Of a DNA stretch of 64,000 nt, positions 1,127-41,114 are shown one piece after another. Positions within the stretch are counted from its first letter, which is position 1. Each line of letters starts with the position of its first letter. The DNA comes from an uncultured Candidatus Rokubacteria bacterium (GTDB lineage: Bacteria > Methylomirabilota > Methylomirabilia > Rokubacteriales > CSP1-6), in assembly GCA_963747235.1 (NCBI GenBank), contig CAVVEU010000003.1, positions 1-64,000 of the forward strand. The letters run 5' to 3'. The notes under the pieces are model-generated. The model worked only from the letters and a program-made list of their open reading frames with translations, had not been told where the DNA came from and ran no database searches. The translations under genes were made by a program, and so were the position numbers.

Positions 1127-1255
1127 TCAGTCCACCGGCCGGACGATCGCCGTCGCGCCCACGATCAGGTCCGGCACCCCCTGCCGGTAGCGGGTGAAGA
1201 GCACGGTCAGGCAGCTCAGGAGCTGCAGGAACGGCACCGCGATGCAGAGCGTGCA
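1127..1255 (-). pseudogene. C-terminal fragment of an RDD-family membrane protein
   Basis: Frame reads CTLCIAVPFLQLLSCLTVLFTRYRQGVPDLIVGATAIVRPVD*, resembling the RDD C-terminal R-Q-G-x-x-D-x-x-x-G motif; RDD commonly precedes ate/bpt in Alphaproteobacteria; no N-terminus present. Confidence 0.6.
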
Positions 1256-1319
1256 CCTGGACGCGATTGTCGGTCAACACTCCGTCAAAGTCGAGTACAA
1301 GGAGCACTACATGTTTCAT
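1250..1319 (-). pseudogene. N-terminal fragment of a KdsC-like HAD phosphatase
   Basis: MKHVVLLVLDFDGVLTDNRVQVH carries HAD motif I (DxDGVLTD); similarity stops after about 23 aa. Confidence 0.6.
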
Positions 1320-1572
1320 GATGGCGGGGCGACTCTGAGGGATTGCCAGGCGGCCATGTGCTTGACGGTGCGGTCCATATTGATCGATTCGGCGGCTCTC
1401 TCTCCGAAGGGCAATTGCGTCCCTTCTGGGTAGTACCGAATCTACTTCTTCCCGCGTCGAAATCCAACAGGTGAAGGCATATCCTCCGGCTCCGCGGCGA
1501 CGGCCGGTTCAGTGGAGTATGAAAAATCTGCACCGGCCGCGCGACACGAGATGTGGAGGGGCAATAGGGCCG

Positions 1573-3906
1573 TCATGGCTGTTTCTGGCGCCCGCCCGCC
1601 GGCAAAGGCGTGAAGAACCGAAACGAGAAGATCTTGGCGTTCTGGAGCTGGAATCGCACGCGCACCACCTGTCCCGCGAGCGACCCGAGGTCGGAGTCGG
1701 CTCCCCACGTGACCACTCGCGAGATCTCATCCCCCGTCATCGAACTCGCATCGGCGATCGTGAATCCCGGGAGGGGCCGGCCGGAGCCGTCCTGAAGCTC
1801 CACGCGGACATGTCCGCCCGGGCCGGTTGCGAAGTTCATCTCCAGCGCCTTGCCGGTGAACGTAACGGGTCTGGTGATCGCCTGCCCGGCGGCCGCGCGG
1901 AGCGCGACAAAACCGTCCGTCCTGAGCGTGTAGCGTACGACGCGGCCGGGCTGCTCGAGATAGACGGACATCTCCTGGGGCCCCGTCGGGACCACGTTCG
2001 GGCTCATACGGCCGGCAAACACCGGCCAGTTGCTCTGCTCCGGAAAGAAGAATCGGGCGTTGGGGAGGCCCGTGGTGATCCAACGTTGAGTCGGAAAGAG
2101 ACGGTCGTAGGTGAGGCCGCCGCGGGTGGAGGCAAACCGCGTTTCGGAGCGAGCGCTATGGCCGTCGTCAGGTTGATTCCGAAAATCGGGATGGGGGACC
2201 GGGATGTAGTGGGAGGGCATCGCAATGGCGATATGCGGCGCTCGAAAGTACGGCGAGGTCGAGTGGAGGTACCAATGCTCGAAGGGGGGACCGCCGGTCT
2301 CCATGTCCACGGGCGGCGACCAGGTGAGCAGGTCGTGAGAAGTCGTCTTCCGGACCCAGCGATACCATCCTCCATAGCTGTCATCGGGACTCGGAGTGCT
2401 CGGTGCCTTCACCCACCCACGGAAGTAGCAGACGTAGATCTGCTCACTCTCGGACCAGAAAGCGGTGTTCATGCCATCGTAGTCGACGGGAGGAAGATTG
2501 GATTGGCCGTCGCGACTCTTGAAGCGCTGGGGAGGAAGAAAAGGCCCGGGGGAATACCTGCTCCACCGGAGGCCATCCGGCGAGACCAGGATGTGGAGGC
2601 CGTCCGTCCACATCGCGCCGTCAGCGCTCCTGTAGATGACGCCGCCGGTCACCGCCTTGTACTTCTGAGAGGGCGGAGCCCCTGGTCGTGTGTCGATGAA
2701 CGGCCGGAGGTTGTGGAAGGACGGGTCCGGCATCAACAGGACATTGTTGTCCCACGTCCCCTTGACCTTGACCTGCCGGAGGTTGGGGCGGGTCCAGGTA
2801 ATCCCGTCCCGGCTTTCCGCGTAGCACGGCATCCCTTCCTCGGCTTCAGGATTCCACCGCGTGGGATCGCAGTAGTAGTACATGCGGTAGATGTCGCCGT
2901 CCTTGATGACGGTCGGCCCCTGCCCGCTCCAGGAGCCCTCCCAGGGTCGGTCCATGAAGTTGAGGGACATCTCCGCCACCTTCGGCGTCTGGAGCTCCAA
3001 CGTCGCCTGCGAGGTGGAGGCGAGAAGTGAGCCGTCCACAAACAGCTCCCGTCGGGATCCGAGGGCCATAGGCGTGAGGTTGGCGCCCTCACTCCCGGTG
3101 ACGACTCTTACGTTGTCCACGCGATAGTCGAGCTCGTTCGAATGCATCGCGAGGACTACTTGATCGAAGGCATACGTGACCGGGTTGGCATCTGCGCGAG
3201 TCACGTCGACGAGGACAGCGCCTGAGGGGTTGCTCACCTTCATCCGCAAAGTCAACTCACGGAGGCCCGTCCGAGTGATCGTGAGGATCCCGGTGTACCT
3301 GGCGGAGCTGTTGATTGTTGCGGAGCTCTCCGCTCCCAGCTGCGCGATGTCTCCTCCTTCCATGAGCCGGGAGGTGCCGTCGCCGCTCTCCTTGAGCAGG
3401 CCGGTGTTTCCGGCGACAGGCCCGTAGCCGGTCTGCGCCCAGTACCCTTTGTCGTCGCGTGTCGCCCCGCTGCCGTCGCTGGTGCTCGGCGTCCCGGACG
3501 TGGTGTAGAGGCCGAAGCGGAAGCGGTTCTCGCTGCTCGCGCTCAAGGGGTTCGCGAACCGGAAATCGAGCGACAGGGTGAGGGTGTCGCCGACCGTCCC
3601 GAGGGTTTGCGGTGATCCAACGAACTGACCGATGACCGCCCGGGTCACGAACGTGCCGGCCGGGACCGAGGGATTGTCGGCGATCAGCGCGTTGGTCACC
3701 AGCGCACCGTCCGGACCCACCGAAAGAGCGGTCGGTGTCCCGGACGAGACCTCGTTGGAGAACCACTGTAGCGCCCGAGGGTCTCGCCCGGCGGTTCTCC
3801 GGCCGTCCTTGAAGGTCTCCTCCACGACTATCGTGGAGGAGAGGGCGGACGTGGCAAGTGCGGCTGCGATGAGGACTAGCCCGATGGCAATTGCTTTGCG
3901 TTGCAT
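1573..3906 (-). CDS. Secreted two-domain protein: N-terminal beta-rich domain plus five-bladed beta-propeller glycoside-hydrolase-like domain
   Basis: Signal peptide MQRKAIAIGLVLIAAALA; RRELFVD, YAESRDGITWTRP, SPDGLRW, RYTLRTDGF and C-terminal VRVRFQLQNAKIFSFRF; TAGAAT 8 nt before ATG 3906. Confidence 0.7.
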   Translation of the reverse strand: MQRKAIAIGLVLIAAALATSALSSTIVVEETFKDGRRTAGRDPRALQWFSNEVSSGTPTALSVGPDGALVTNALIADNPSVPAGTFVTRAVIGQFVGSPQTLGTVGDTLTLSLDFRFANPLSASSENRFRFGLYTTSGTPSTSDGSGATRDDKGYWAQTGYGPVAGNTGLLKESGDGTSRLMEGGDIAQLGAESSATINSSARYTGILTITRTGLRELTLRMKVSNPSGAVLVDVTRADANPVTYAFDQVVLAMHSNELDYRVDNVRVVTGSEGANLTPMALGSRRELFVDGSLLASTSQATLELQTPKVAEMSLNFMDRPWEGSWSGQGPTVIKDGDIYRMYYYCDPTRWNPEAEEGMPCYAESRDGITWTRPNLRQVKVKGTWDNNVLLMPDPSFHNLRPFIDTRPGAPPSQKYKAVTGGVIYRSADGAMWTDGLHILVSPDGLRWSRYSPGPFLPPQRFKSRDGQSNLPPVDYDGMNTAFWSESEQIYVCYFRGWVKAPSTPSPDDSYGGWYRWVRKTTSHDLLTWSPPVDMETGGPPFEHWYLHSTSPYFRAPHIAIAMPSHYIPVPHPDFRNQPDDGHSARSETRFASTRGGLTYDRLFPTQRWITTGLPNARFFFPEQSNWPVFAGRMSPNVVPTGPQEMSVYLEQPGRVVRYTLRTDGFVALRAAAGQAITRPVTFTGKALEMNFATGPGGHVRVELQDGSGRPLPGFTIADASSMTGDEISRVVTWGADSDLGSLAGQVVRVRFQLQNAKIFSFRFFTPLPAGGRQKQP

Positions 3907-4053
3907 CGTTGCCCATTCTATCGGCTTCAGGAAGGCTATGGACCGGCAAGCGGGCTTCGGGGGGCTGGTCCGCGGCCAAAGCTCCGCTATGGGCGGCAAC
4001 CTTGGTCGGCCAGATGCTTCGACCGGGCGTGAGCCCGGCGGGTTAGCCGGATG

Positions 4054-4209
4054 CTAGGGCCGTTCGGGCCGAGTGGGACGGGTGCGACGCCCCAGCAATC
4101 CGATCCCTGTCAGAGCCGTACCAATCAGCAGAAGCGAGGCCGGTTCGGGCCCAACAAAACCACCCAGCACCCCCAAGCTCAGGAGCGCCAGAATCAAGAT
4201 CAGTCTCAT
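4054..4209 (-). CDS. 51-aa minimal PEP-CTERM peptide (not in the ORF track)
   Basis: MRLILILALLSLGVLGGFVG-PEP-ASLLLIGTALTGIGLLG-RRTRPTRPERP*; AAAGG upstream; divergent from the exosortase gene. Confidence 0.75.
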   Translation of the reverse strand: MRLILILALLSLGVLGGFVGPEPASLLLIGTALTGIGLLGRRTRPTRPERP

Positions 4210-4264
4210 ATCGGTTGCCTTTCATGACCAAGCCAGAGAGGCCAGCCGGGTCGGCACGAGGACG

Positions 4265-4280
4265 TGCACGGTTCGTACCG
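4265..4280 (-). promoter_or_regulatory. sigma54 -24/-12 promoter of the mini PEP-CTERM gene
   Basis: CGGTACGAACCGTGCA (GG-N10-GC); IHF-like TTTCAATATCTTG at 4308-4320. Confidence 0.55.
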
Positions 4281-4470
4281 GCCGTCCACATCTCAAGACT
4301 CCTTATATTTCAATATCTTGTTGACTCTGGGCCGAGAAGAACCTGAAAACTCGTGCAGATTAAAGGGAGAAACTTTTCAGCTAGTTGAATCGGGTTGACT
4401 TACGATTCTTCCCTCGCCGAAACCGCCGCCGTAGGATCATCAACTCCAGGGGACCAGGACCACCGCTTCC

Positions 4471-5373
4471 ATGTCGAACTCCAGCCGATCTCTTTCCGAC
4501 CTGAAGAGTGACGGAAGCCCTATTGAAGCCTGTCGGGCCAAGGGGGCCGTTGCGGCCACGATCCTGGTTGTCCTGCTGACGGCGCTGTACTGGTCGATTC
4601 TCGGCGGCCTGGTGACCCAGTGGTGGGATGACGCCAACTACACGCATGGATTCCTCGTGCCCGTGTTCAGCGGCTTTCTGGTCTGGCGGGAACGCGCCAG
4701 GCTGATGGCCGTGGTCCCCCGCGGCACCCGCCTGGGCCTGGCGGTGCTGGTCGGGGGTATCGGCATCCTGTTCCTCGGAAGCATCGGCTCCGAGAACTTT
4801 CTGATGCGCAGCTCCCTGATCGTTGTCCTCGCCGGACTGGTGCTGTTTCACCTGGGCGCGCGGGTCCTCCGAATCGTCTTCTTTCCGCTGGCCTTCCTGT
4901 TCTTCATGGTGCCCCTGCCGGGCGTGGTCTTCTACGCCGTGACGTTTCCTCTCCAGCGGCTCGCCGCCGAGCAGGCCGCCTGGACCCTCGACCTGCTCGG
5001 GGTGCCCGTCCTGCTGGACGGCAACGTCATTCACCTGAGCCAGATCACCCTGGGCGTCACCGAGGCGTGCAGCGGGATCCGTTCGCTCATCTCGTTGCTG
5101 GCCAGCGCGGTCGCCTGGGCGTACCTCACGCTGCCCCTGGGTTTGATCGCACTCGCCTTTGTGCTCCTGGCAATCCCGATCACCATCTTCGCCAACGCGG
5201 CCCGCGTGGTCGCCACCGGGCTCATCGGGCAATGGTTCGGCGTCGAGTACGCCAGCGGGTTCTTCCACGAGTTTGCCGGCCTGGCCGTCTACTCCCTGGC
5301 CCTCGCCTGCCTGGGCGGGGTCTACACCGTCGCCCGCGGGCTCGTCAGGCCGGGCGGGAAGCCTCGCGATTGA
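4471..5373 (+). CDS. xrt: Exosortase (EpsH/XrtA family)
   Basis: Multi-TM protein with YTHGFLVP, VTEACSGIRSL (catalytic Cys), ANAARV (Arg) and FFHEFAG (His). Confidence 0.92.
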   Translation: MSNSSRSLSDLKSDGSPIEACRAKGAVAATILVVLLTALYWSILGGLVTQWWDDANYTHGFLVPVFSGFLVWRERARLMAVVPRGTRLGLAVLVGGIGILFLGSIGSENFLMRSSLIVVLAGLVLFHLGARVLRIVFFPLAFLFFMVPLPGVVFYAVTFPLQRLAAEQAAWTLDLLGVPVLLDGNVIHLSQITLGVTEACSGIRSLISLLASAVAWAYLTLPLGLIALAFVLLAIPITIFANAARVVATGLIGQWFGVEYASGFFHEFAGLAVYSLALACLGGVYTVARGLVRPGGKPRD

Positions 5374-6014
5374 CCTCGCTCCTGCGCGTATCGCTCTCGG
5401 CGGCGGTGCTCCTCACGGCCTTGCTGGTGCTGCAGTTCCGCTCCAGCGGGGAAGCGGTTCCCATCCGGAAGTCTCTCGATCTGTTTCCGGTCGACCTTGG
5501 CCAGTGGCGAGGCCGTCAGGACACGGCGCTGGAGCCGCAGATCATCAACCAGTTGAAGGTCAACGATTACCTCATGCGCCGGTACGTCCACGACTCCGGG
5601 CAGAGCCTGTGGCTCTACATCGGCTACTGGGCGACGCAGCGCAAGGGGGCTGACTTTCACTCCCCGAAGAACTGCCTTCCCGGTGGCGGCTGGGAGCCCG
5701 TCGAGGCTACCCGGATCACCATCGACCTGCCCGGCCCCCAGCCGCCGATCGTGGTGAACCGGTACGTGATCCAGAAGGACCGGACGATGCAGGTCGTGCT
5801 GTACTGGTATCAGACCCATGGCCGAGCCATCGCCGGCGAGGTCGAAGCCAAGATCGAGCTGGTCCGGGGTTCCATCACCCGGAACCGGACCGATGGAGCC
5901 CTCGTGAGGGTCTCGAGCGTCGTCGCCGGCAACAACCCACAGGCCACGACCGAGCGCCTCGTCGAGTACGTCCAGAGCGTCTACCCGGTGCTCCACGAGT
6001 TTCTGCCGGACTAG
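5370..6014 (+). CDS. epsI: EpsI-family exosortase-associated protein
   Basis: TTG start overlaps the exosortase stop; LYIGYW..QR, HSPKNCLPGGGW, VLYWYQ and RTDGALVRVS. Confidence 0.88.
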   Translation: MTSLLRVSLSAAVLLTALLVLQFRSSGEAVPIRKSLDLFPVDLGQWRGRQDTALEPQIINQLKVNDYLMRRYVHDSGQSLWLYIGYWATQRKGADFHSPKNCLPGGGWEPVEATRITIDLPGPQPPIVVNRYVIQKDRTMQVVLYWYQTHGRAIAGEVEAKIELVRGSITRNRTDGALVRVSSVVAGNNPQATTERLVEYVQSVYPVLHEFLPD

Positions 6015-6017
6015 TCC

Positions 6018-8198
6018 ATGTCTCGCACGGGTGGATTGCGACGTGGGGCGCTGCTCATCCTGGTGGTGATGTCGCTCCTCGCCGGCTGTGCGAGATCTCC
6101 GGAGGCCAAGAAGGCTCGCCATCTCGAGCGGGGTGACCGCTACTTCCAGCAGGAGAAGTACCGGGAGGCCGTGCTCGAGTACCGCAATGTCCTCCGTATC
6201 GACAGCGGCAACGCTCAGGCGATCCGCCAGCTGGGGCTTGCCCACTACCAGCTCGGCGAGATGGGGAATGCCGGGCGCTATCTGCTGCGCATCCAGCAGC
6301 TCGAGCCCGAGAACCTGGAGGCCCGATTGAAGCTGGGGAGTCTCTACCTGCTCGGCGGCCGGTCCGAGGACGCCATGCGGGAGGCCGAGTTCGTGCTCGA
6401 GCGGGATCAGGAGAATCTCGACGGGCTCGTGCTGCTCGCGGGCGCAGCCAGGACGCCCGAGCAAGTAGAGGCCGCCGTTCGACGTCTGGAAGCGGCGCGG
6501 GCGGCCCTGTCCGAGCGGGCCAGATTCCACCTGGCGATCGGGGGGCTCTACCTGCAGAAGGGAGACTGGGCGGCCGCCGAGCGGGCCTTCCGGGAGGCAG
6601 GGGCCCGCGAGCCGAAGTCCGCCGAGCCGCATCTCGCGCTCGCGAGCCTCTACGTCTCCCGACGCGACACCGCCCGGGCCGAGAGCGAGTACAAGCTCGC
6701 CGCGCAGCTCGCTCCGATCGGCTCCGCGGCCCGGGTAAGATTGGCCGACTTCTATCTGCTCCTGGGGCGACGAGATGAGGCCAGGAGCACGCTGAAGGAG
6801 ATCACCGACGCGGCACCCGACTATCTGCCGGCGTGGCGACGGCTCGGCGAGCTCGCCTTCATCGAGCGGAACCTGGAGGAGTCCGCCCGGGCCGCCGCGG
6901 TGGTCCTGAAGAAGAACCCGTCCGATCTGGACGGCCTCTTTCTCACCGCGCGCATCCACCTGGCGAAGCGCGAGACCGCGCTGGCCACCGAGGCTTTCCG
7001 GAAGGTGCTGAGCCTGGAGCCGAACTCGGCCCCGGCCCGCCACCAGCTCGCCCTCGCGCATCTTCAGGCGGGGAACGTGCAGCAGGCCAGGTCGGAGCTT
7101 CGCGAGACCCTGAAGCTCGCGCCGAACGTCCTGGAGGCCAGCCTGCTGCTCGCGCAGCTCGATATCCAGAGCGGTGCCGTGCGCCCGGCCATCGATGATC
7201 TGGAGAAGCTCATCGCACGCCGGCCGGATGCGCTGGCCGCCTACGCCCTCCTGGTCACCGCGCACCTGGGAGCGCGTGACCCCGTCCGAGCCGCGGCCGC
7301 CGCGCGCGCGCTGACGACGGCCGCTCCCCGAGAGCCGCGCGGGCCCTACCTGCTCGGCGTCGCGCTCCTGGCCCAGGGCAAGCCGCCAGAGGCGCGCGAG
7401 CAGTTCGTACGCGCGCTATCGCTTTCGCCCGGATTCGTGGAGCCGCTGAGCCAGCTTGTCTCGCTGGATCTGGCCGCCCGGCAGTCCGACGCGGCGCTCG
7501 CAAGGGTGACGAAGCAGATCACCATCGTGCCCGGATCGGCCGCGCACCGGATGCTCCTGAGCCAGGTGCATGTCGCCCGCAATGAATCCCGCTCGGCCGA
7601 GGCCGCCCTCCTCAAGGCGGCCGAGATCGACCCGCAGTCGACCGACCCCTACCTGGGGCTTGGCCAGCTCTATGCCCGAACCGGCCGTCACGAGGAGGCG
7701 CTCGCGAAGCTGGACGAAGGGTTGAAGAAGAACCCGCAAGACCTGGGTCTCGTGATGGCCAGTGGAATCATTCATGAGCTGATCGGTGACATCCCCCGGG
7801 CCCGTGAGGAGTACGAGAAGGTTCTCGCGATCAATCCGCGGTTCGCCCCCGCCGCGAACAATCTCGCGTGGCTCCTCTCCGAGCACGGCGGGGACAGGGA
7901 GAGGGCGTTGGCGCTGGCCCAAACGGCAAAGGACGTTGCCCCCGGCGACCCGCGGATCTCGGACACGCTCGGCTGGATTCTGTATCGACGTGGGGCGAAT
8001 CAGCGAGCGCTGACCCTGCTGCAAGAGAGCGCGGCCAAGCTGCCGGACAATCCGCAAGTGCAATACCATCTCGGGATGGCCTACGCACAGGCCGGTAACC
8101 AGGTAAGTGCGCGGAAGGCGCTGGCCGCGGCGGTGGGCTCGCCGGTCGATTTTCAGGGCAAGGAAGAGGCGAAGAAGGTACTACTAGGGCTGCAGTAA
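6018..8198 (+). CDS. TPR-repeat lipoprotein, PrsT-like (PEP-CTERM system)
   Basis: Lipobox LLAGC; many TPRs; C-terminal AANNLAW and DTLGWILY..YHLGMA. Confidence 0.85.
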   Translation: MSRTGGLRRGALLILVVMSLLAGCARSPEAKKARHLERGDRYFQQEKYREAVLEYRNVLRIDSGNAQAIRQLGLAHYQLGEMGNAGRYLLRIQQLEPENLEARLKLGSLYLLGGRSEDAMREAEFVLERDQENLDGLVLLAGAARTPEQVEAAVRRLEAARAALSERARFHLAIGGLYLQKGDWAAAERAFREAGAREPKSAEPHLALASLYVSRRDTARAESEYKLAAQLAPIGSAARVRLADFYLLLGRRDEARSTLKEITDAAPDYLPAWRRLGELAFIERNLEESARAAAVVLKKNPSDLDGLFLTARIHLAKRETALATEAFRKVLSLEPNSAPARHQLALAHLQAGNVQQARSELRETLKLAPNVLEASLLLAQLDIQSGAVRPAIDDLEKLIARRPDALAAYALLVTAHLGARDPVRAAAAARALTTAAPREPRGPYLLGVALLAQGKPPEAREQFVRALSLSPGFVEPLSQLVSLDLAARQSDAALARVTKQITIVPGSAAHRMLLSQVHVARNESRSAEAALLKAAEIDPQSTDPYLGLGQLYARTGRHEEALAKLDEGLKKNPQDLGLVMASGIIHELIGDIPRAREEYEKVLAINPRFAPAANNLAWLLSEHGGDRERALALAQTAKDVAPGDPRISDTLGWILYRRGANQRALTLLQESAAKLPDNPQVQYHLGMAYAQAGNQVSARKALAAAVGSPVDFQGKEEAKKVLLGLQ

Positions 8199-8215
8199 CG
8201 GGCCGGTGTTAGGCC

Positions 8216-8656
8216 TCAAGCACCAGTCGATAAGCGACGCCGGCGCGCATACACGCCCAGCCCGGCCAAGGTAGATCCCAGCAAGAGGAGGGTCCCCGGT
8301 TCCGGCGAGGATACAGGGGGATCGCAGTCGGGGTCGTCCTGGCCATAGCCCTTGTCCCATTTCACGAAGCCGTAGCCTTCGTGGCCCTTGTACTTATCCA
8401 AGCCTGACTTGTAGTTGCTGGCCTTCCCGTACTTGCCGTGCTTCTCTTGGCCACCGGAATGGCCGTAGTCGTAGTCGTGCTTCCCGTAGTCGTACTTCCC
8501 ATAGTCGGGCTTGCCGTACTCAGGCTTGCCATGGAGGCCGCTCTTACCCCACCCCATGTCGTAATCGTGGGCCGGCAGTGCCTCTGCCGAGGCGCCGAAA
8601 ACCAAGGACAGCGCGGATATTGCCCCGAGAATCACTCTTTGCCGGTGGCGTGCCAT
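8216..8656 (-). CDS. PEP-CTERM protein with a low-complexity Tyr/Gly/Lys/Asp/His-rich domain
   Basis: GGAGG RBS; signal peptide ending ASAEA; C-terminal SPEPGTLLLLGSTLAGLGVYARRRR. Confidence 0.88.
   Translation of the reverse strand: MARHRQRVILGAISALSLVFGASAEALPAHDYDMGWGKSGLHGKPEYGKPDYGKYDYGKHDYDYGHSGGQEKHGKYGKASNYKSGLDKYKGHEGYGFVKWDKGYGQDDPDCDPPVSSPEPGTLLLLGSTLAGLGVYARRRRLSTGA
8472..8531 (-). repeat. 4 x 15-bp coding tandem repeat (GK-x-D/E-Y pentapeptides)
   Basis: Plus-strand units tagtcgtgcttcccg / tagtcgtacttccca / tagtcgggcttgccg / tactcaggcttgcca. Confidence 0.85.
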
Positions 8657-8697
8657 GGCTTCCTCCCCCAATCGATACTCGTCCGCTGGCGGAGTGA

Positions 8698-8713
8698 AGC
8701 AATTCGCATACCA
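8698..8713 (-). promoter_or_regulatory. sigma54 promoter of the YGK-repeat PEP-CTERM gene
   Basis: TGGTATGCGAATTGCT (GG-N10-GC) about 40 nt upstream of the ATG, with an AT-rich tract upstream. Confidence 0.7.
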
Positions 8714-8901
8714 CGGGGACGGTACCCCGCAACGCTTTATTTTTATGGGCGGTCGGAAATCGTGAGGCGGACAGAAGCTGGGTAATTCACTCCTCTATCT
8801 GGATGTCGCCGTATCCATGGTTCCTTTTCTCGAGATTCCCCTGGACCGAAGCCCGAGTGGGCCGGTTTTGACTCCGTGCGGTATCGTGCTAACGATGTCA
8901 T

Positions 8902-10980
8902 GTGCAACGCCAGCCCTCAGCGCAGCGTCACTTCCGCGTCGGCCTTGTCGGCGCTGGCTATGTCAGTGAGTTCCATATTCGGGCGCTTCAACGCCTGCCG
9001 GAAGTCCGGATCGTCGGGCTCACTGATCTCGTCGAGGAGCGCGCGCGCGCCGTAGCCGCCCGCTTCGGCATTGCCGCTTGGCCAGCACTCGAGGCCATGG
9101 CCGACACCGGCTTGGACGTTGTCCACGTCCTGACTCCGCCCGCCAGCCACACCACGGTCGCCCTGGATGCGCTGCGCCGCGGCTGCCACGTTCTCGTGGA
9201 GAAGCCGCTCGCCACGAGCGTCGAGGAATGCGACCGGCTGAGCGCGGAAAGCGTGGCGGTCGGCCGGCACGTCTGCGTCGGCCACTCGATGCTCGCGGAT
9301 CCGACATTCGTACGGCTCCTTGCGGCCGTGCGGGCAGGCGCGGTGGGTGACCTGTTGAGCGTCGACATCTTCCGCAGCTCGATCTATCCCCCCTACTACG
9401 GGGGGCCGCTGCCGCCACAATACGGTGACGGTGGCTACCCCTTCCGGGATCTGGGTGTCCATGCGCTCTACATGCTCAGCGAGCTGCTTGGCCCGATCGG
9501 GGGCATCACCCCGGAGTTCCGGACGGCGGGCGCGCTCGCCGCCGACCCGAATCTACTTTTCGATGAATGGCGAGCGCTCGTGCGGTGTGCTCGCGGGAGC
9601 GGCCACGTCCAGCTCTCCTGGAACGTCCGCCCGCTGCAGCACCTGGTGATGGTCCAGGGCACACGAGGCACGTTACGGGCAGACCTCTACTCGATGTTCG
9701 TCAGCGGCCGACGGAACACTCCCGCCCCGAAGGCCATCGAGCGGGTCTTCAACGCGGTGAGCGAGTCTGCGCAGTCGGCAACGGGCGTCTTGATGGGAGC
9801 CGGGCGCTTCGCGGCAGGACGCGTGTTGCCGTATCAAGGCCTGCACAACCTCGTGCGCGAGTTCTATCGGTGTCTGGCCGAAGATCGCCCGATGCCGGTG
9901 ACGGTGGCGAGCGCCCGCAGTATCGTGGACTGGACGGAGCGCGTGGCACGTCCGGCCGACGTCGCCAAGCTGGCGGTGCGGGCGTCCCACTCGGCCCGGC
10001 CGCAGGCCGCGGTGGTCGTCACCGGCGCCAACGGTCTGCTTGGTCGCGCACTGGTGCAGCGGCTGCTCGAGCGCGGCGAGCGCATCCGGCTCTTTGTCCG
10101 GCGGGCCCCCCCGCCTGAGATCAGCGAGCATCCGTTGGTGGACGTCGTGCTCGGCGACCTGGGTGACCCGTCCGCGGTGGCGCGGGGTCTGGCGAATGCC
10201 ACGACCGTGTTCCATTGCGGTGCCGCCATGTTCGGGGCGTGGCCTGCGCACGTGAGCGGAACCGTCGAGGGTACGCGCAACGTGCTCGCCTCCTGTCTGG
10301 CCCATGGAGTGAAGAAGCTCGTTTACGTCAGCTCCCTCTCCGTGCTGGATACCGCGGGGCTGTCCGGCAAGGTGGTCACGGAGTCGTCCCCGCTCGAGCC
10401 ACGTTCCGAAGAGCGCGGCGCCTACAGCCGAGGCAAGTTCCAGGCAGAAGAGCTCGTACGCGCCGTGGTGGCCGAGCAGCAGCTACATGCCGTCATCCTG
10501 CGGCCGGGCCATATCTGGACCGAAGAGGGGCCATTGCTGTCGCCGGCGGTCGGGATGCGCGTCGGGCGCTTGCTGCTCATGCTCGGCGATCCCCACCTCC
10601 TCTTGCCTCTCGTTCATGTGGATGATGTTGTGAGCGCACTACTCCTGGCCCGGGATGCGGATGTCGCGCCCGGCACGGTGTTCCACCTCGTCGACGACGA
10701 CCCGATACCTCGCGAGGAGCTGGCTCGTCTGTACCGGGATGCGCGCGAACCTGGCCTGCGCATCCTGCCCATACCGCTTGTGCTCGCCACGAGCGTGGCC
10801 GGCTTGCTCGGTGGCTTGACGCGCGCACTCGGGCGGCCGATCGGACCCTCACCCTACCGGCTGCGCGCGGGCGTCGCGTCCCTCCGGTTCGATTGCAGCA
10901 AGGCCTTTCGGCAGTTGGCGTGGAAGCCCAGGGTGAAGAGCCGCACTGCGCTGCACACGGTGCTGGGCCGCCGAATCTGA
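8902..10980 (+). CDS. Gfo/Idh/MocA oxidoreductase fused to an NAD-dependent epimerase/dehydratase
   Basis: VGAGYV and VLVEKPLA in the N-terminal half; VTGANGLLG, YVSSLSV and YSRGK (YxxxK) in the C-terminal half. Confidence 0.85.
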   Translation: MQRQPSAQRHFRVGLVGAGYVSEFHIRALQRLPEVRIVGLTDLVEERARAVAARFGIAAWPALEAMADTGLDVVHVLTPPASHTTVALDALRRGCHVLVEKPLATSVEECDRLSAESVAVGRHVCVGHSMLADPTFVRLLAAVRAGAVGDLLSVDIFRSSIYPPYYGGPLPPQYGDGGYPFRDLGVHALYMLSELLGPIGGITPEFRTAGALAADPNLLFDEWRALVRCARGSGHVQLSWNVRPLQHLVMVQGTRGTLRADLYSMFVSGRRNTPAPKAIERVFNAVSESAQSATGVLMGAGRFAAGRVLPYQGLHNLVREFYRCLAEDRPMPVTVASARSIVDWTERVARPADVAKLAVRASHSARPQAAVVVTGANGLLGRALVQRLLERGERIRLFVRRAPPPEISEHPLVDVVLGDLGDPSAVARGLANATTVFHCGAAMFGAWPAHVSGTVEGTRNVLASCLAHGVKKLVYVSSLSVLDTAGLSGKVVTESSPLEPRSEERGAYSRGKFQAEELVRAVVAEQQLHAVILRPGHIWTEEGPLLSPAVGMRVGRLLLMLGDPHLLLPLVHVDDVVSALLLARDADVAPGTVFHLVDDDPIPREELARLYRDAREPGLRILPIPLVLATSVAGLLGGLTRALGRPIGPSPYRLRAGVASLRFDCSKAFRQLAWKPRVKSRTALHTVLGRRI

Positions 10981-12160: not shown

Positions 12161-12814
12161 ATGGGTACGATGGGGACCAGGAAGATGCCCGAGGCGAACG
12201 GCAGGGACCGGCGACGTTTCCAGCGCATCCGAACGGCGTGGCCCGTCATCCTGGAGTCTGCCGACGGCCGGGTGGGCGTCGGCCAGGTGGTGGACACGAG
12301 CCTCTCCGGTATGCGCATCGCCACCGATCTCGATCTCGAGCCCGAGACGCCCCTCGTCTTGCGTATCACGCTGCCCAAGGACACCGGCCGGCTCGAGATC
12401 CTCGTGAAGGTGGCCCGCCGCGACCCGCATGGCTTCGGCGTGTCCTTCCTCACCGTGGGCGAGGGAGAAGCCGAGCGCATTGCGCCCTTCGTGGCGCCCG
12501 GCGACATCCGGCGCTGGGCTCGCCGCGTGACGGTGAGCCTGCCCGTGCGAATCGAGGCCGGCACCGTGGAGGGCGAGATCATCCACGGCCGCACCGTGGA
12601 CCTGAGCACCTCGGGCGCGCGCCTCACCACGGACGGCAGCCTGGCCGTGAGCGACGTCGTCGTGGTCGAGCTGCCCGGCCCCGAGATCGGCGGAACCCTT
12701 CGCCTGCCCGCGCTGGTCTGGGAGGCCTACTCCGGAGGCGCGGTGGTGGTCTTCGCCAACCTGGCCCGGGGCGAGTACTTGAAGCTGCGCGACTTCCTGA
12801 ACCACTTCGGCTAG
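12161..12814 (+). CDS. Tandem PilZ-domain protein (start possibly 12185)
   Basis: RRRFQR...DTSLSG and RRWARR...DLSTSG give two RxxxR / DxSxxG pairs. Confidence 0.85.
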   Translation: MGTMGTRKMPEANGRDRRRFQRIRTAWPVILESADGRVGVGQVVDTSLSGMRIATDLDLEPETPLVLRITLPKDTGRLEILVKVARRDPHGFGVSFLTVGEGEAERIAPFVAPGDIRRWARRVTVSLPVRIEAGTVEGEIIHGRTVDLSTSGARLTTDGSLAVSDVVVVELPGPEIGGTLRLPALVWEAYSGGAVVVFANLARGEYLKLRDFLNHFG

Positions 12815-12938: not shown

Positions 12939-12954
12939 TGGCACATGCGTTGCT
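12939..12954 (+). promoter_or_regulatory. sigma54 promoter
   Basis: TGGCACATGCGTTGCT, a near-perfect TGGCAC-N5-TTGC. Confidence 0.8.
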
Positions 12955-13098
12955 CACTTCTGTGCGATGCTCAAATCTGCCCCGTACCGCGTATTGCGAG
13001 CGGGCAGAACGGTCGTCACGGCTTTGCGGTGGAGGGCCCCCCGGCGGGACGCTAGAATGGGTCGCCCTGAGGAACTTCCGATACGAGGAGAGGGAGCG

Positions 13099-13554
13099 AT
13101 GGACAATTCGGCCGAGAAGAACCCGCTGACCAGGTGGGTTGACGAGATGCAGGGCGTGATGAAGATGATCACGGGCCTCATCGAGGACAGCGACCGCAAC
13201 CGCGTGGTGGTCGAATCCGCCCAGCGCGAGCAGGCCGAGCTGCGCGAGGAGATCCACCGCTTGCGGGCCGAGGTCGAGACCCAGCGCATGGAGGTGGACC
13301 GGCAGCGGGGCGAGACCGAGCGCCAGCGCTCGCTCGTGGACGCCGCCCAGCGCGAGCGCGACGATCTCCGAACCGAGCTCGCGGCCCTCAACGCCGAGAC
13401 CGAGCGTCTCCGCAGCGAGCAGACCGAGGCCGGCGAGAGCGCGGCCAAGCTCCTCGGGGAGATGAAGGACCTCGTGAACCAGGTGGCGCACAAGTTCCAG
13501 GGGCCGTCCAAGAGCAGCCCCTTCGCTCGCGAGCCGCGGTCGCCCCAGTCCTGA
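13099..13554 (+). CDS. Coiled-coil protein of unknown function; paralog of 20082-20363
   Basis: GGAGAGGGAG RBS; heptads AEVETQR/MEVDRQR/GETERQR. Confidence 0.8.
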   Translation: MDNSAEKNPLTRWVDEMQGVMKMITGLIEDSDRNRVVVESAQREQAELREEIHRLRAEVETQRMEVDRQRGETERQRSLVDAAQRERDDLRTELAALNAETERLRSEQTEAGESAAKLLGEMKDLVNQVAHKFQGPSKSSPFAREPRSPQS

Positions 13555-13562
13555 GCCTGTCC

Positions 13563-14835
13563 ATGACTCCCAACGCCGATGCGCTGAAGGCCGCGCCCCC
13601 GCGAGCCGGAACCGCGATCGGCGAGGTTCGCGCCGCGCTCGACGAGCTCGTCGCGAGCCATCACCAGACCGTGCAGATCGAGCGCCTCCGCGCCTTCCGG
13701 GAGATGGCGGGCGAGGTCGCGCACGACTTCAACAACACGCTCTCCGGCATCCTCGCCCGCGCCCAGCTCCTCCTGGCCGACGTGCAGGATCCCGACGTGC
13801 GCCGCTCCCTCCGCATGATCGAGCAGGTCGCCCTGGAAGGCGCCTGGGTGGTCCGCCGCTTCCAGGACTTCAGCCGCACGCGCCCGTCCCGTCCCTTCCA
13901 GCCCGTGGATCTCAACCAGCTCGTGGAGGAGATCGCCAACTCCGCCCGCTCGCGCTGGAGCCAGCAGCTTGCCGCGCGCGGCATCACGGGAGAGGTACAC
14001 GCCGAGGCGGGCCCGGTGCCGCTCGTGTCGGGCGACATGGCCGAGCTGCGCCAGGTGCTGACCAGCATCGCGCTGAATGCCCTGGACGCGATGCCCGAGG
14101 GCGGCAACCTGACCTTCCGGACGGGCCGCGAGCGCGGCCGCGTCTTCTGCCAGGTGGCCGATACCGGCATCGGCATGACCGAGCAGGTGCGCCTGCACAT
14201 CTTCGATCCCTTCTTCACCACCAAGCGCGAGAAGGGCAAGGGCTTCGGGTTGAGCGGCGCCTACTCCATCGTGGACCGTCACGGCGGCGAGATCACCGTG
14301 CAGAGCGAGCCCGGCAAGGGCGCGGTCTTCACCGTGTGGCTGCCCCTCGTGGCCGCGGCCGCCGAGCCGCTCCCGGCATCGGGCCGGTCCAACGGGCCCG
14401 CCGCAGTGGCCAGCGCCGCCGCCCCGGTCGCGCCGCCCGCGCCGAAATCCGTTCCGGGCGCCAAGATCCTGGTGGTGGACGACTCCGAGGAGGTCCGTGA
14501 AGTCCTGCGGGAGCTCCTCAGCCGGCACGGGTACACCGTGGTCACGTGCCCCGGACGGCGAGTCGGGCCTCGTGGAGCTGGAGAGCCGCACGTTCGACCT
14601 GGCGATGGTGGACCTGGGCCTGCCCGGCATCTCCGGCCTCGAGGTCGCCAATCGCCTGAAGGCCCGCTGGCCCTCGACGCAGGTCGCGCTCATGACCGGC
14701 TACGGAGATCGCATGGGGCCCGAGGATGCGCACGCCAAGGGCGTCGACTTCGTCCTGGCCAAGCCCTTCTCCCTCGACCAGCTCCGCTCCGTCGTGGATC
14801 ACGCCCTCGCCAACGGCAAGAACGCGACCGTCTAG
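13563..14835 (+). CDS. Hybrid histidine kinase/receiver with no sensor domain (frameshift near 14550)
   Basis: AGEVAHDFNNTL, DTGIGM, FDPFFTTK, GKGFGLS; receiver ILVVDD...MVDLGLP...MTGY...KPF. Confidence 0.88.
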
Positions 14836-15140
14836 CCCGCCCCGCGTCGCCGCCAGCAGAAGAACACGGCGCCCTGAAGGATCGAGAGCGCCACCAGCGA
14901 GATGTCGTTGAGCATGTAGATCGAGACGAAGACCGACGACGCCGCCCGGATTGCCAGCACGATCGCCGCGCCGAGCACGAGATTTCCGGCCAGGAAGAGC
15001 GCCGCGATCCCCACCATTTCCACGACCGCCAGGACCGCCCGCCCGAGCGACCGGTTCCCCGCGACCGCCTTGGGAACCAGGAACCCGGCCAGGAGCGACG
15101 TCGTGACGGCCAGCATCAGCAGGAAGCCGGTCTGCCGCAT
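14832..15140 (-). CDS. Small three-TM membrane protein
   Basis: Hydrophobic 102-aa ORF directly downstream of the YdcF gene. Confidence 0.65.
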   Translation of the reverse strand: MRQTGFLLMLAVTTSLLAGFLVPKAVAGNRSLGRAVLAVVEMVGIAALFLAGNLVLGAAIVLAIRAASSVFVSIYMLNDISLVALSILQGAVFFCWRRRGAG

Positions 15141-15149
15141 GGGGATCGT

Positions 15150-15767
15150 CTAGATGTAACCCATCGTCCGATAGTAGAGACGGGCGGCGAATTCCATCGT
15201 GACCGACCGCAGGAGGGCCAGGCGCTCCTCCGGACTCGCGTTGAGGTTCCACACGCTGTTCCAGGGTGCGGGGACGACCTCGAAGCCCACGCGCTCGAAT
15301 ACCACCATCGCGCGGCGCGTTCCCGGGCCATCGACGACGAGGAGCACCTTCCGGACGCCTCGCGGCTGCAGCAGCGCCTGGAGCTGCACGGCCTCCTCGC
15401 GCGTGGTGTGGGCCGGCGGCGCGGTCACGATGGCCGCCTCCGGCACGCCCGACTGGCGGGCGAAGTCGGCGCGGGCCTCGGCTTCTGTTCGCCCTCCTTT
15501 CTGCCCGCCTCCCGACAGGACCAGCACGGGGGCCCAACCCTGTCGGAACAGCGTGACGCCCTCCATCGCCCCGCGCAGCGACGTGTCGGTGAGAGCGCCC
15601 GCTCCCGAGACACCGCCGGCGCCCAGCACCACGATCGCCTCGGCCCGCTCCGGGGGCCGATCCGGGTCCAGCCAGGATCCGGCCATCTCCACCGCGGGCG
15701 TGAACGCGGCGAGCAGGAAGCCGAGCACGACTCCCCCCCCGAGCCACCGCAGCAGACGGCCGCTCAA
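15150..15767 (-). CDS. YdcF/ElyC (DUF218) family protein
   Basis: AIVVLGAG, LVLSGG, TEAE, TTREEA. Confidence 0.8.
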   Translation of the reverse strand: MSGRLLRWLGGGVVLGFLLAAFTPAVEMAGSWLDPDRPPERAEAIVVLGAGGVSGAGALTDTSLRGAMEGVTLFRQGWAPVLVLSGGGQKGGRTEAEARADFARQSGVPEAAIVTAPPAHTTREEAVQLQALLQPRGVRKVLLVVDGPGTRRAMVVFERVGFEVVPAPWNSVWNLNASPEERLALLRSVTMEFAARLYYRTMGYI

Positions 15768-17575
15768 GGCCGTGGCCCGTAGTGAGGAAGCGTGCCGCCC
15801 AGCTCGCAGCAGCCGAGGTCCGGCGCGGTTCCCGCGAAGCCGTCATTGAAGTTCGGCAGCGCGACGCCCGCGTCCACCGCGAGCGACCCCGGGCTCAGGC
15901 GGACGTCGATTCCGACACTCGGGAAGCGGGTGCCCTCGCTGCCGGGCCGCTCGATGCCGCTCGCAAAGTTCCCCTTCGGGTTGAGGACGATGGCCCCGCG
16001 CCGAGCGTACAGGGCCCCGGAGCGCCGCGCCGCGTCCGCGGAGCCATAGACCGCGTCGTTCCAGAGGGCGAACCCCCCGAGCAGCGTGCCGGCGCCGGCC
16101 CCGGGCCAGCCATAGCCGTCGGCGTCGAAGTCACACCGGATCATCTTGCCCTTCGAGTAGAGAGCGGGCCCCCCGCCGCCGAGCAGGAGATTGTTCCGGG
16201 TGACCACGTAGGTGACGGTTTCGCCACCCGTCTCGATCCGCCACGGAAGGGTCGCGACCACCGAGGTGTTGTGGAAGATGAGCACCCCGGATGTGTCGTT
16301 GTGCAGCTTGAAGGGCGAGTAGAGGGCGTTGTAGATGACGTTGCGGAAGATGTAGAGCGGCCCGCCGTTGCTGGGCTGGGCGCTGATCCCCGAGTAGACG
16401 TTGGCGATCCGGTTGCGGTAAACACGGACGTTGGTGTCCGAGTAGTCGGCCTCGATCCCGTCGTCGGTGGCGACCTCGATGTCGTTGTTGTAGATGTCGC
16501 TCGCCGAGAGCCCGCCCGCCTGGTTGCCGTGGATCCCGTCGCCGAGGTTCTGCAGCCGGTTGTAGGCGATCACGTGTCCCGCGCCGGTGATCTCGATCCC
16601 GTTGATCCCCTCGATTCCCCGGCTGCGCGGCCAGGTCGCCGGCCCCCGGATCACGTTGTCGGTGATGACGAACCCGCGCGATTCCTCGTACCCGCCGTTG
16701 ATCGCGGTGATCCCAGTCCACGTCACGTCGAGCCGGCACCGTCGGATCACGAAATGAGATCCGTTGTGGCCGACGAACAGGTACTCGGCGTTGCGCATCG
16801 TTAGCCGCTCGAACCAGACGTGCTCGACGCGATCCGCGTTGATGAGCCGCGTGCGCCCGCCTCCGTCGAGGATCGTCTCTCCATCTCCCGCGCCCCGGTA
16901 GATGATGGGCCGCCCCGCCATCCCGTGCCGCCGGATCGTCACCTGCCCTTCGGCGTAGACACCGGCGTGGAGGAGAAAGAGGTCTCCCGGCGCCGCCGCG
17001 GCCTCCGCGGCGAGAATCCCTCGGAATGGATCCCGCTCCGTCCCGGTGCCCGGCCCGCCAGACCCGGTCCCCGCCGGAACGACGTGCCGTACCCGCATGC
17101 CCGCCGGCTCGCGCGGCTCGCCCGCGGTTTGCATGAGGAGCACGCGCTGGGTGCCGCCGCCATCCGGGTCGATCAGGGAGAGCACCACCTCATGCTCGGT
17201 TTCCGGCGCGAGGTCCACGATGCTGCCCGCGAAAAGCCAGCCTCCGGCCACGCGGTTCTCGTCCGACACCGCCTCCGGGTCCGTGCGAAAGAGAGGCAGC
17301 CCGTCCTTCCAGGCGGTGTCACCCCGCCGCCGGTACTGGACCGTGATGACGGCGTTACCGTTCTGGTCACCGCGGACCGGCCAGCGGACACCTAGCGAGT
17401 GAAAGGTCGGGGGCTCGATCACGAGCTCGCCCGGCTCCGAGCGATTCGCGGCGGGGTCGCCCGCGCTCTCGGCAGGCGGGGCGGCCACGAGTGGGACCTG
17501 AGGCTGCCGCACGGCGTCCGCACAAGCTCCGAGGGCCAAGGTCAGCAGGCTCAACAGGACTAGCGCTTGTGCCAC
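15764..17575 (-). CDS. Lipoprotein with a right-handed parallel beta-helix (pectin-lyase-like)
   Basis: Lipobox LGAC; PGDLFLLHAGVY; DDGIEAD, GISAQP..GGPLYIFRNV; GTAPDLG. Confidence 0.8.
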   Translation of the reverse strand: MAQALVLLSLLTLALGACADAVRQPQVPLVAAPPAESAGDPAANRSEPGELVIEPPTFHSLGVRWPVRGDQNGNAVITVQYRRRGDTAWKDGLPLFRTDPEAVSDENRVAGGWLFAGSIVDLAPETEHEVVLSLIDPDGGGTQRVLLMQTAGEPREPAGMRVRHVVPAGTGSGGPGTGTERDPFRGILAAEAAAAPGDLFLLHAGVYAEGQVTIRRHGMAGRPIIYRGAGDGETILDGGGRTRLINADRVEHVWFERLTMRNAEYLFVGHNGSHFVIRRCRLDVTWTGITAINGGYEESRGFVITDNVIRGPATWPRSRGIEGINGIEITGAGHVIAYNRLQNLGDGIHGNQAGGLSASDIYNNDIEVATDDGIEADYSDTNVRVYRNRIANVYSGISAQPSNGGPLYIFRNVIYNALYSPFKLHNDTSGVLIFHNTSVVATLPWRIETGGETVTYVVTRNNLLLGGGGPALYSKGKMIRCDFDADGYGWPGAGAGTLLGGFALWNDAVYGSADAARRSGALYARRGAIVLNPKGNFASGIERPGSEGTRFPSVGIDVRLSPGSLAVDAGVALPNFNDGFAGTAPDLGCCELGGTLPHYGPRP

Positions 17576-40478: not shown

Positions 40479-40974
40479 GCACGCTGAACGGCGTCGTGTC
40501 GGTGACACCGTAGAAGAATACGCTGCCGTTGGTCGCACCCGCGTGCGGGACGTTCCCGAATTCGGTGAGATTGAGCTGGCCGCCCACGTCTCCGACGTCG
40601 ATCCCATAGAAGCCCAACGCGGTTACCGCGCTGTTGAGCGTCAGCGTGAAGCCGGTCCCGTCGAGCCGCAGCAGCTTGGTCCCCGAGATCGGAAACCCGC
40701 CGTCTCCGTCATGGGTGCCACCGTAGCGATCGCGTATGCTCGAAGCCGAGATTGATCGGAGCGCCGCCGTCCGTCAGCCCCTCGAGGTTCTGGGTCGTAG
40801 GCGACACGATGTGGGTGTTGAAGTTCCCCCGCGCGGCGTCGGCGTTCGGCCGGCTAGCGAGCGGCACCCCACCGGGCGCCCCCAAGTCTTGCCCGAAGTA
40901 GAAGATGGGGCCGCCTCCGCGGCGCCGAACGTCAGCAGCAGTGCCGCGAGACTGCCGATCCAGTGCTTGGTCAT
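40285..40974 (-). CDS. PEP-CTERM protein (several frameshifts)
   Basis: Signal MTKHWIGSLAALLLTFGAAEAAP; ALGFYGIDVGD; TPEPGTLLLLGTSLAGMAGAAWKRRK. Confidence 0.8.
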
Positions 40975-40996
40975 GGACCCTCCTGAAGGGGTCCTT

Positions 40997-41012
40997 CGCA
41001 AACTGTGTGCCG
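40997..41012 (-). promoter_or_regulatory. sigma54 promoter of the PEP-CTERM gene
   Basis: CGGCACACAGTTTGCG; IHF-like AATCAGCAGCTTG at 41028-41040. Confidence 0.75.
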
Positions 41013-41114
41013 TGCCTCGACCTCACGAATCAGCAGCTTGGCCTTCATCCAGACCCGGGCTGACCCTCGTGTGCCAGATCTGTGAAGAATATTTCCTAGT
41101 CAGCGGAATCGCAT

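Follow-up and report, generated by a model that had tools for sequence, protein, structure and literature searches.

PEP-CTERM proteins, in the sections of Haft 2006 (PMC1569441) drawn on here, combine a hydrophobic N-terminus with a tripartite C-terminal tag made of a Pro-Glu-Pro (PEP) signature, a hydrophobic helix and a cluster of arginines, and their genes are single-gene units with more than 200 nt of non-coding DNA and a -24/-12 element upstream, situated near xrt, epsI and prsT. The same sections describe the signature as "nearly invariant" among tagged proteins and give the location of exosortase cleavage as "unspecified" and the acceptor as "unknown". Near-invariance of the signature among tag carriers also appears as criterion 3 in the cited part of a later preprint, where criterion 7 holds the tag to be a module found on otherwise unrelated passenger proteins (bioRxiv 10.1101/2023.06.07.544157). 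In Aquincola tertiaricarbonis, the pertinent sections of one study describe PepA, encoded by an RpoN-dependent PEP-CTERM gene upstream of prsT, as a full-size secreted protein that runs below 29 kDa on blots and binds exopolysaccharide to cells (PMC9850573). Here we describe a gene of 51 codons that lies beside an exosortase gene in a 64,000-nt stretch of contig CAVVEU010000003.1 from an uncultured Candidatus Rokubacteria bacterium (the whole stretch is called the window below), and whose product consists of little besides a signal-like helix and such a tag.

4054-4209 (stop included), minus strand: gene for the 51-residue micro-protein, studied by translation, PEP-CTERM hidden Markov models, homologues, substitution ratios, a reading-frame test and AlphaFold2 prediction
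4471-5373, plus strand: XrtA-like exosortase gene xrt, divergent from the micro-gene (PF09721, 226 bits; TIGR02602, 194.6 bits with a cut-off of 105.55)

The open reading frame (ORF) begins with ATG and cannot be extended upstream, an in-frame stop lying five codons 5' of the start. The product opens with Met-Arg and an 18-residue hydrophobic run, and passes through Pro-Glu-Pro into a second hydrophobic run, the basic cluster RRTR and seven further residues; the first helix spans approximately residues 2-19 and is followed by a Gly-Pro-Glu-Pro turn, a second helix (22-42) and RRTR at 41-44. All 20 residues ahead of the signature belong to the hydrophobic signal or helix, with no passenger among them. 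The first-pass annotation had described a signal or membrane helix joined directly to a complete sorting signal, and the 51-residue translation bears this anatomy out. An AlphaFold2 model from a 13-row alignment likewise shows helices at residues 2-19 and 22-42, interrupted at Gly20-Pro21 (mean predicted local distance difference test score, 71), and the N-terminal Met-Arg with its hydrophobic run could be a signal peptide or equally an uncleaved helix. The stretch is present in a single copy in the genome and matched no family in an Rfam scan, and its G+C content at third codon positions (GC3) is 0.67, lower than in the adjacent genes (0.77-0.85).

Judged by comparison with its relatives, this is a genuine single-copy gene for what is predicted to be an inner-membrane micro-protein. 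A word-indexed search returned two 51-residue relatives at 88% and 82% identity, and a scan of metagenomes added two contigs (L049 and L050) that share one and the same ORF, its product 65% identical to the window protein from end to end (70% in the best tblastn segment of L049) and a third homologue that is cut by its contig end (L051). An exhaustive profile search of 1.84 billion representative sequences produced 137 matches, 8 of which cover the whole profile, all at most 104 residues long, while the remaining 129 match in the tail only; the same approach gave 43 matches in a set of 5.8 billion. Pooled, the family comprises 45 sequences with 44 distinct cores, found in soil-type metagenomes. 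The aligned start is Met in 41 of 44 members, and the length counted from it is exactly 51 residues in 31 and 57 residues in 5, with the others scattered and some entries carrying miscalled upstream starts; both start and length are conserved down to approximately 47% identity.

Over codons 11-46 the ratio of non-synonymous to synonymous substitution rates (dN/dS) is 0.12 between the window and L049 (dS 0.86) and 0.09 between the window and L051 (dS 1.43), with differences at the first, second and third codon positions of 5/2/17 and 5/4/21, respectively. The purifying selection for which the first-pass annotation proposed to look is therefore found in the core. When all six frames are compared, the sense frame has the lowest ratio of non-synonymous to synonymous differences (pN/pS 0.18) and is free of stops. 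Codons 1-10 have a dN/dS of approximately 1.2 yet remain hydrophobic, and constraint begins at residue 11. In a comparison that covered 20 listed sequencing runs, all of them DNA contigs at low depth, a soil run from a different study (X5) contains a related strain with the same micro-ORF, spacer and xrt arrangement. Its listed differences number 3 in the 156-nt ORF against 15 and two indels in the 261-nt spacer, again at low depth, and its apparent replacements at codons 42 and 21 are seen on one contig each at a depth below 3 and may be errors.

It might be supposed that such an ORF is the non-functional relic of a PEP-CTERM gene after loss of its passenger, or a chance frame in GC-rich DNA. 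The depressed GC3 could be taken in this sense, as could a Pfam score (PF07589) that stops 0.1 bit below its cut-off and the presence, at the same divergent position in a genome whose exosortase is 63% identical (G036), of a 264-residue PEP-CTERM protein. However, neither idea accommodates dN/dS values of 0.09-0.12 at a dS of 0.86-1.43 or a start and length shared by 44 homologues, and the divergence of those homologues excludes assembly duplicates of one sequence. The likeness to the G036 protein (E 0.41), and to a 146-residue PEP-CTERM protein in the window itself (E 0.65), is that of the generic tail only. Nor does any long protein among the profile matches share both ends, their N-termini being unrelated; where the first-pass annotation had allowed for relatives with a long domain between signal and PEP, the full-length relatives are all passenger-less micro-proteins. 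These comparative data, with similarity in the tail only and no long relative alike at both ends, effectively refute a deletion remnant, and a remnant or chance origin of any kind is so improbable that it may be set nearly aside.

As to membership of the PEP-CTERM class, residues 21-42 match TIGR02595 at 18.7 bits (cut-off 16; 19.0 bits in a six-frame scan of the genome) and PF07589 at 20.6 bits, marginally below the cut-off of 20.7, so that the profile test suggested in the first-pass annotation succeeds with one model and narrowly fails with the other. The signature triplet stands at residues 21-23 and the helix runs into the basic cluster as in other tags; the seven-residue extension beyond it is longer than usual and is conserved in the family. 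The genomic setting is also appropriate. An exosortase gene adjoins, and the 5.6-Mb genome (88% complete) contains four TIGR02595 matches, three of which fall in the window near xrt, one match being broken by frameshifts. As a control for the specificity of the PEP-CTERM models, 13 of 14 control genomes gave sub-threshold matches and 2 of 14 gave matches above cut-off.

Two properties set the micro-protein apart. Its family has PEP in only 28 of 44 distinct sequences, which is far from the near-invariance described for tag carriers, and modularity is absent in that there is no passenger and members are homologous across all 51 residues, whereas canonical PEP-CTERM proteins share the tag alone. 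The micro-protein agrees with the class in its profile score, motif, helix, basic cluster and genome context and departs from it in signature invariance and modularity, and because of these two departures it is not an ordinary PEP-CTERM member. The only existing label that was found is the automatic NCBI name of one family member, "PEP-CTERM sorting domain-containing protein", and full-text literature searches, confined to main texts, found no paper on passenger-less PEP-CTERM proteins; a passenger-less, length-conserved PEP-CTERM-like family therefore appears to be new. The nearest ESM Atlas clusters, at scores of 0.86-0.87 that lie below the 0.9 level and make them leads only, contain proteins of 53-72 residues (53-222 members), and some carry automatic names as PEP-CTERM, VPEID-CTERM or VPDSG-CTERM sorting-domain proteins, which suggests, within the limits of such scores, that several sorting systems may have mini-proteins consisting of the tag alone.

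Conservation within the family was counted in the 41 members that begin at the conserved Met and extend for 50 residues or more, except that Trp17, Phe18 and the triplet were counted over all 44:

Leu26, Gly30, Leu33, Gly37, Arg41, Arg42 and Arg44: invariant (41 of 41)
Trp17: 41 of 44, the sole Gly at this position being that of the window copy
Gly20: 34 of 41
Lys48 and Glu49: 31 of 41 and 29 of 41

Phe18 is kept in 34 of 44 members. The 16 triplets other than PEP are PQP (5), PGP (2), SES (2), SDP (2), SEP (2), GEA (1), PKP (1) and PDP (1), whereas PEP is present in 128 of the 129 tail-only matches from the same search, which serve here as a control. Position 14 is Ala, Val, Gly or Leu in all 41 members and position 16 is Gly, Ser or Ala in 39 of 41, in keeping with the -3/-1 rule for signal peptidase. 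By alignment, Trp17, an invariant face of the second helix, the RRxR cluster, an RKE tail and end-to-end homology together define a distinct family, and its predicted membrane-embedded and cytoplasmic parts are kept more strictly than the presumed scissile motif. Canonical XrtA substrates differ on each count, since the micro-protein lacks a passenger, has a fixed length of 51 residues and a relaxed PEP, and possesses both Trp17 and an RKE tail located 4-8 residues after the arginine cluster. Because the triplet is so much looser here than in the control while helix 2 and RRxR are invariant, the pattern favours selection for membrane docking or binding over selection for cargo delivery. The roles suggested in the first-pass annotation, a decoy or competitive inhibitor, an activity sensor or a membrane signalling peptide, are conjectures, and among them it is a binding or decoy role to which this contrast lends weight.

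The reading that we favour, tentatively and in the knowledge that it may well be wrong, is that the micro-protein is a co-induced pseudo-substrate or modulator of the exosortase. It would insert as a tight helical hairpin with both ends cytoplasmic, which would place the Pro-Glu-Pro turn at the periplasmic face, and helix 2 with its RRxR tail would fit into the substrate site of the exosortase encoded next door, like any PEP-CTERM tag. The selected function would then be occupancy of the enzyme, tuning exosortase throughput with no cargo delivered. Occupancy is proposed because there is no passenger and because it is the helix face, Trp17 and the tail, and not PEP, that carry the constraint. 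Divergent adjacency to xrt-epsI-prsT, both in the window and in the X5 strain, supports a link with the exosortase; a predicted complex of the two proteins scored 0.00 in a run without controls, and counts neither for nor against binding.

A functional analogy can be found in BofA, a small multi-helix membrane protein that inhibits the intramembrane protease SpoIVFB by occupying its substrate site. Sequence, enzyme class and organism are all unrelated, and inhibition by the micro-protein would be a parallel in function only. As far as we are aware, exosortases still lack a published structure with bound substrate, a mapped cleavage site and an identified acceptor. A conserved 51-mer that is nearly all tag would offer studies of binding, cleavage and structure a minimal ligand from nature. 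The contrast between a relaxed PEP and an invariant helix face also points to the portions of the tag that serve some purpose besides cleavage. Should the micro-protein prove to regulate the exosortase as a pseudo-substrate, no natural modulator of the family would have been described before it, and it would exemplify a bacterial micro-protein evolved from a sorting signal.

Several observations weigh against a pseudo-substrate. PEP is after all still kept in 28 of the 44 members, so processing may well be the norm; the small residues at positions 14 and 16 could make the product a cleaved single-pass peptide and not a hairpin; and the window copy has Gly where 41 of 44 members have Trp17. The distribution of the family weighs the same way. 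With the family profile, a strong full-length match was obtained in only one of 183 genomes of the order (G000, E 4.7e-31), the next-best match (E 4.5e-8) being confined to positions 11-46 within a 147-residue frame, and among 251 genomes of the phylum, at E of 1e-6 or better, the same genome held the only clear full-length copy. Hence no clear full-length copy was found in the other 182 order genomes or the other 250 phylum genomes searched, where a first-look filter scored only part of the candidates and a negative means not found among those. (Both counts include one unpublished genome, G165, on which no claim rests.) Three weak partial matches from the genome-collection scan (E 1e-4 to 9e-4) were not counted. 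Exosortase homologues, meanwhile, are present in 14 of 41 relatives, and on these counts the micro-protein is not a general exosortase partner. Finally, no exosortase was found on the homologue contigs L049 (7.5 kb), L050 (6 kb) and L051 (2.8 kb).

The small residues and the majority triplet are what a true minimal substrate or peptide precursor might be expected to show, in which case the product, or the act of processing itself, would matter, whether in priming, as a reporter of activity or as a signal. By the precursor route, signal peptidase I would cut after residue 16 to leave a 35-residue single-pass peptide with the stub (Trp/Gly)-Phe-Val-Gly, and the exosortase would next cleave at PEP, releasing or transferring a peptide of 5-6 residues. 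Much of the family pattern is compatible with this: the first ten codons are unconstrained yet signal-peptide-like in their hydrophobicity, constraint sets in at residue 11, Trp17 and Phe18 immediately after the putative cut are strongly conserved, the TIGR02595 cut-off is passed and xrt adjoins. In a distant analogue from another genome (L077; G072:C522, 1487-1662, plus strand), a classic Ala-x-Ala site immediately precedes the tag. This 58-residue protein, with its Ala-x-Ala signal followed by Thr-Asp-Pro-Gly, a helix and RR, looks like a second, independent passenger-less tag protein.

However, a substrate would hardly be expected to lose PEP in 16 of 44 members when canonical tails keep it almost without exception, and the conserved RKE tail past the basic cluster has no role in a tag that is discarded. 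The window copy, moreover, is without Trp17, and a signal peptide of 16 residues stands at the short extreme. A minimal substrate is for these reasons possible but somewhat doubtful.

A narrower proposal, which we consider improbable, is that a tiny peptide is made from the micro-protein and exported, with residues 1-16 removed, the exosortase cutting at PEP, and (Trp/Gly)-Phe-Val-Gly-Pro(-Glu) released or transferred. The layout is that of AgrD and M13 procoat, a precursor class (approximately 46-73 residues) in which only a very brief exposed stretch separates a hydrophobic N-terminal part from a charged C-terminal tail. Procoat enters the membrane as a helical hairpin, and AgrD is acted on by AgrB, a polytopic membrane cysteine peptidase, together with signal peptidase. 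There is no sequence relationship between these systems and the micro-protein, and peptide release here would be proposed by analogy. If it were so, the exosortase would have a second role in maturing a peptide signal, much as AgrB does for AgrD, and cell density or the state of the matrix would be coupled to sigma-54-controlled sorting of surface proteins.

The surroundings of the relatives raise the further thought that the micro-protein is a two-helix hairpin independent of exosortase. Its target would be the membrane itself or some other partner there, such as a sensor kinase or the polysaccharide machinery, and its likeness to PEP-CTERM tags would reflect shared ancestry or merely a shared shape. 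On the exosortase-free metagenome contigs the homologues adjoin genes for a phosphomannomutase, a polysaccharide-lyase-like lipoprotein and a TupA-like ATP-grasp protein, and the L077 analogue is divergent from a sigma-54 activator and adjoins a GGDEF-like protein and a receiver protein. The relaxed PEP and the family-specific conservation outside the tag fit the same idea, and the PEP-CTERM models are short profiles with many common residues, as the control genomes attest. Yet these contigs are short, and an exosortase may lie elsewhere in the genomes concerned. In both the window's genome and the second study's strain the gene is the divergent neighbour of xrt; it supplies one of only four PEP-CTERM matches in 5.6 Mb, three of them clustered near xrt, and its sigma-54-type promoter belongs to a class common to canonical PEP-CTERM genes. 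A hairpin with no connection to exosortase is, all told, unlikely, and the pseudo-substrate reading remains the one that we prefer.

Some further features of these relatives may be recorded. One family member lies on an NCBI contig labelled Candidatus Rokuibacteriota. In G002, whose exosortase is 71% identical, no small ORF was found at the divergent position. On L049, approximately 1.4 kb upstream of the micro-gene homologue (3300-4686) are without a convincing ORF, and downstream (5407-7508) fragments of an integrase core (rve) hint at a rearranged or mobile neighbourhood. Short frames with PEP-CTERM tails at three other loci (L039, L043 and L024) lack a start codon or hydrophobic N-terminus and were rejected as broken or cut tails.

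The predicted regulatory region of the micro-gene resembles that of its better-known counterparts. The features flanking the ORF are as follows:

4342-4394, minus strand: upstream block conserved with L049 in DNA alignment, including TAATCTGCA-N5-TTTTCA; candidate activator-binding site
4308-4320, plus strand: site like that of integration host factor (IHF), TTTCAATATCTTG, with one mismatch to WATCAANNNNTTR, between the upstream block and the -24/-12 element
4266-4280, minus strand: sigma-54-type -24/-12 element CGGTACGAACCGTGC (CGGTAC-N5-GTGC, GG-N10-GC), 56 nt before the ATG; a weak match
4218-4223, minus strand: Shine-Dalgarno-like GAAAGG, 8 nt before the ATG (L049 has GGAAAGGAAA at the same place)
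4023-4038, minus strand: GC-rich hairpin with a 6-bp stem, a 4-nt loop and no U-tract, 16 nt after the stop; weak

The 261-nt spacer is relatively AT-rich and is shared, as the first-pass annotation had it, with the divergent xrt-epsI-prsT genes. The ribosome-binding site and the IHF-like site that it also placed here are both present, the latter being the only match with at most one mismatch in the intergenic region and one of 6 on both strands of the 64-kb window. Its claim of a dedicated sigma-54-type promoter stands in part: the element exists and aligns with a stronger site, TGGCGC-N5-ATGC (2 mismatches), that precedes the ATG in the L049 homologue by 63 nt, but the window copy is itself weak, with 3 mismatches to TGGCAC-N5-TTGC, a degree of match that alone is no more than chance would give (0.43 sites per 300 nt). 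Sites of the GG-N10-GC type with at most 2 mismatches, for which the background is 0.054 per 300 nt, are found 42 nt upstream of the second PEP-CTERM gene of the window and 56 nt upstream of the L077 analogue; for the G036 PEP-CTERM gene the distance, measured to the start of the longest ORF, is 18 nt. Window-wide, the consensus with 3 mismatches allowed occurs 448 times against 511 expected, and is uninformative alone; a degenerate pattern gives 6 matches against 3.16 expected, 3 of them upstream of the window's three PEP-CTERM ORFs, the pattern having been partly defined from two of these.

The candidate activator-binding block overlaps a segment (4322-4382) for which the X5 strain has no listed differences, although its flanks are variable. 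The genome encodes RpoN (400.4 bits; cut-off 277.35). The cut-offs for PrsR (best 440.1 against 502.6) and PrsK (best 99 against 300) were not reached in the genome, where many other activators of the NtrC type are present. Sigma-54 control of proteobacterial PEP-CTERM genes, as single-gene units with more than 200 nt of upstream DNA, is described in the cited sections of Haft 2006 (PMC1569441), in an arrangement of an activator motif, a spacer of approximately 63 nt, the sigma-54 motif and approximately 71 nt (standard deviation 38.5) to the start; for Aquincola pepA such control has been shown experimentally, according to the relevant part of that study (PMC9850573). The predicted layout upstream of the micro-gene matches both, and its motifs would give the gene a sigma-54-type regulatory unit to itself, as is usual for PEP-CTERM genes. 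Its putative -24/-12 element and the weak hairpin after its ORF have counterparts in pepA, as presented there, in a mapped -24/-12 promoter and a stem-loop after the ORF, and both genes lie near prsT. PepA, however, is a full-size secreted protein (PMC9850573), and the micro-protein has no domain that could bind exopolysaccharide to cells.

A scan of positions 3850-4500 found no sigma-70-type promoter, and a terminator scan found a single terminator-like site, inside the ORF and at chance level (1 against 0.8 expected). The hairpin after the stop has a folding energy of -17.7 kcal/mol (z -2.0), and 7 of 200 shuffled sequences were as good. Short GGGG/CCCC hairpins are found at the same place in L049 and L051, no better than shuffles, and RNAalifold recovered no shared stem for the post-stop hairpins; a terminator or stabilizer is a possible but weak interpretation.

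The remaining genes of the exosortase neighbourhood are as follows:

5067-6014 (longest ORF), plus strand: epsI (TIGR02914, 149.6 bits with a cut-off of 42.8; PF11984)
6018-8198, plus strand: prsT, a tetratricopeptide repeat (TPR) protein (TIGR02917, 383.1 bits with a cut-off of 312.2)
8216-8656, minus strand: canonical 146-residue PEP-CTERM protein with a low-complexity, Tyr/Gly/Lys/Asp-rich repeat as passenger
1573-3906, minus strand: 777-residue secreted protein with a signal peptide and no PEP-CTERM tag, 147 nt downstream of the micro-gene on the same strand

The exosortase reaches 203.3 bits on the XrtA model TIGR03109, slightly below the cut-off of 208, and its Cys200 and Arg245 are, with other residues, invariant across 14 sequences. 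The EpsI domain begins at residue 111 of the longest ORF, from which the true start probably lies after the xrt stop. Set against the fused XrtD and XrtW models, the window exosortase and the separate EpsI (4471-6014, plus strand) together account for the two halves, and so are the split form of a single protein of other lineages. The 777-residue protein had no match in Pfam, NCBIfam or PDB sequences. A sigma-54-like site, TGGTATGCGAATTGC, at 8699-8713 is the one located 42 nt before the start of the 146-residue PEP-CTERM gene.

The third PEP-CTERM gene of the window (40285-41026, minus strand) looks broken, with parts in three different frames, and a sigma-54-like site with one mismatch lies upstream of it (40998-41012, minus strand). 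Its tag-bearing frame (40304-40381) has no stop after the basic cluster and continues antisense to an ilvA-like gene (39045-40478), and the product of that gene likewise looks over-extended at its C-terminus. A perfect sigma-54 consensus, TGGCACATGCGTTGC, is present at 12939-12953 (plus strand), just 5' of an ORF of no known family (12967-13554) that is preceded by a PilZ-domain protein (12161-12814) and followed by a histidine kinase (13563-15782). Most 400-nt bins across 1201-6400 and 7601-9200 have 58-68% G+C against a window mean of 70%, and GC3 around the exosortase module is 0.67-0.85 against at least 0.9 for many genes farther along the window; this lower GC may be a sign of foreign origin.

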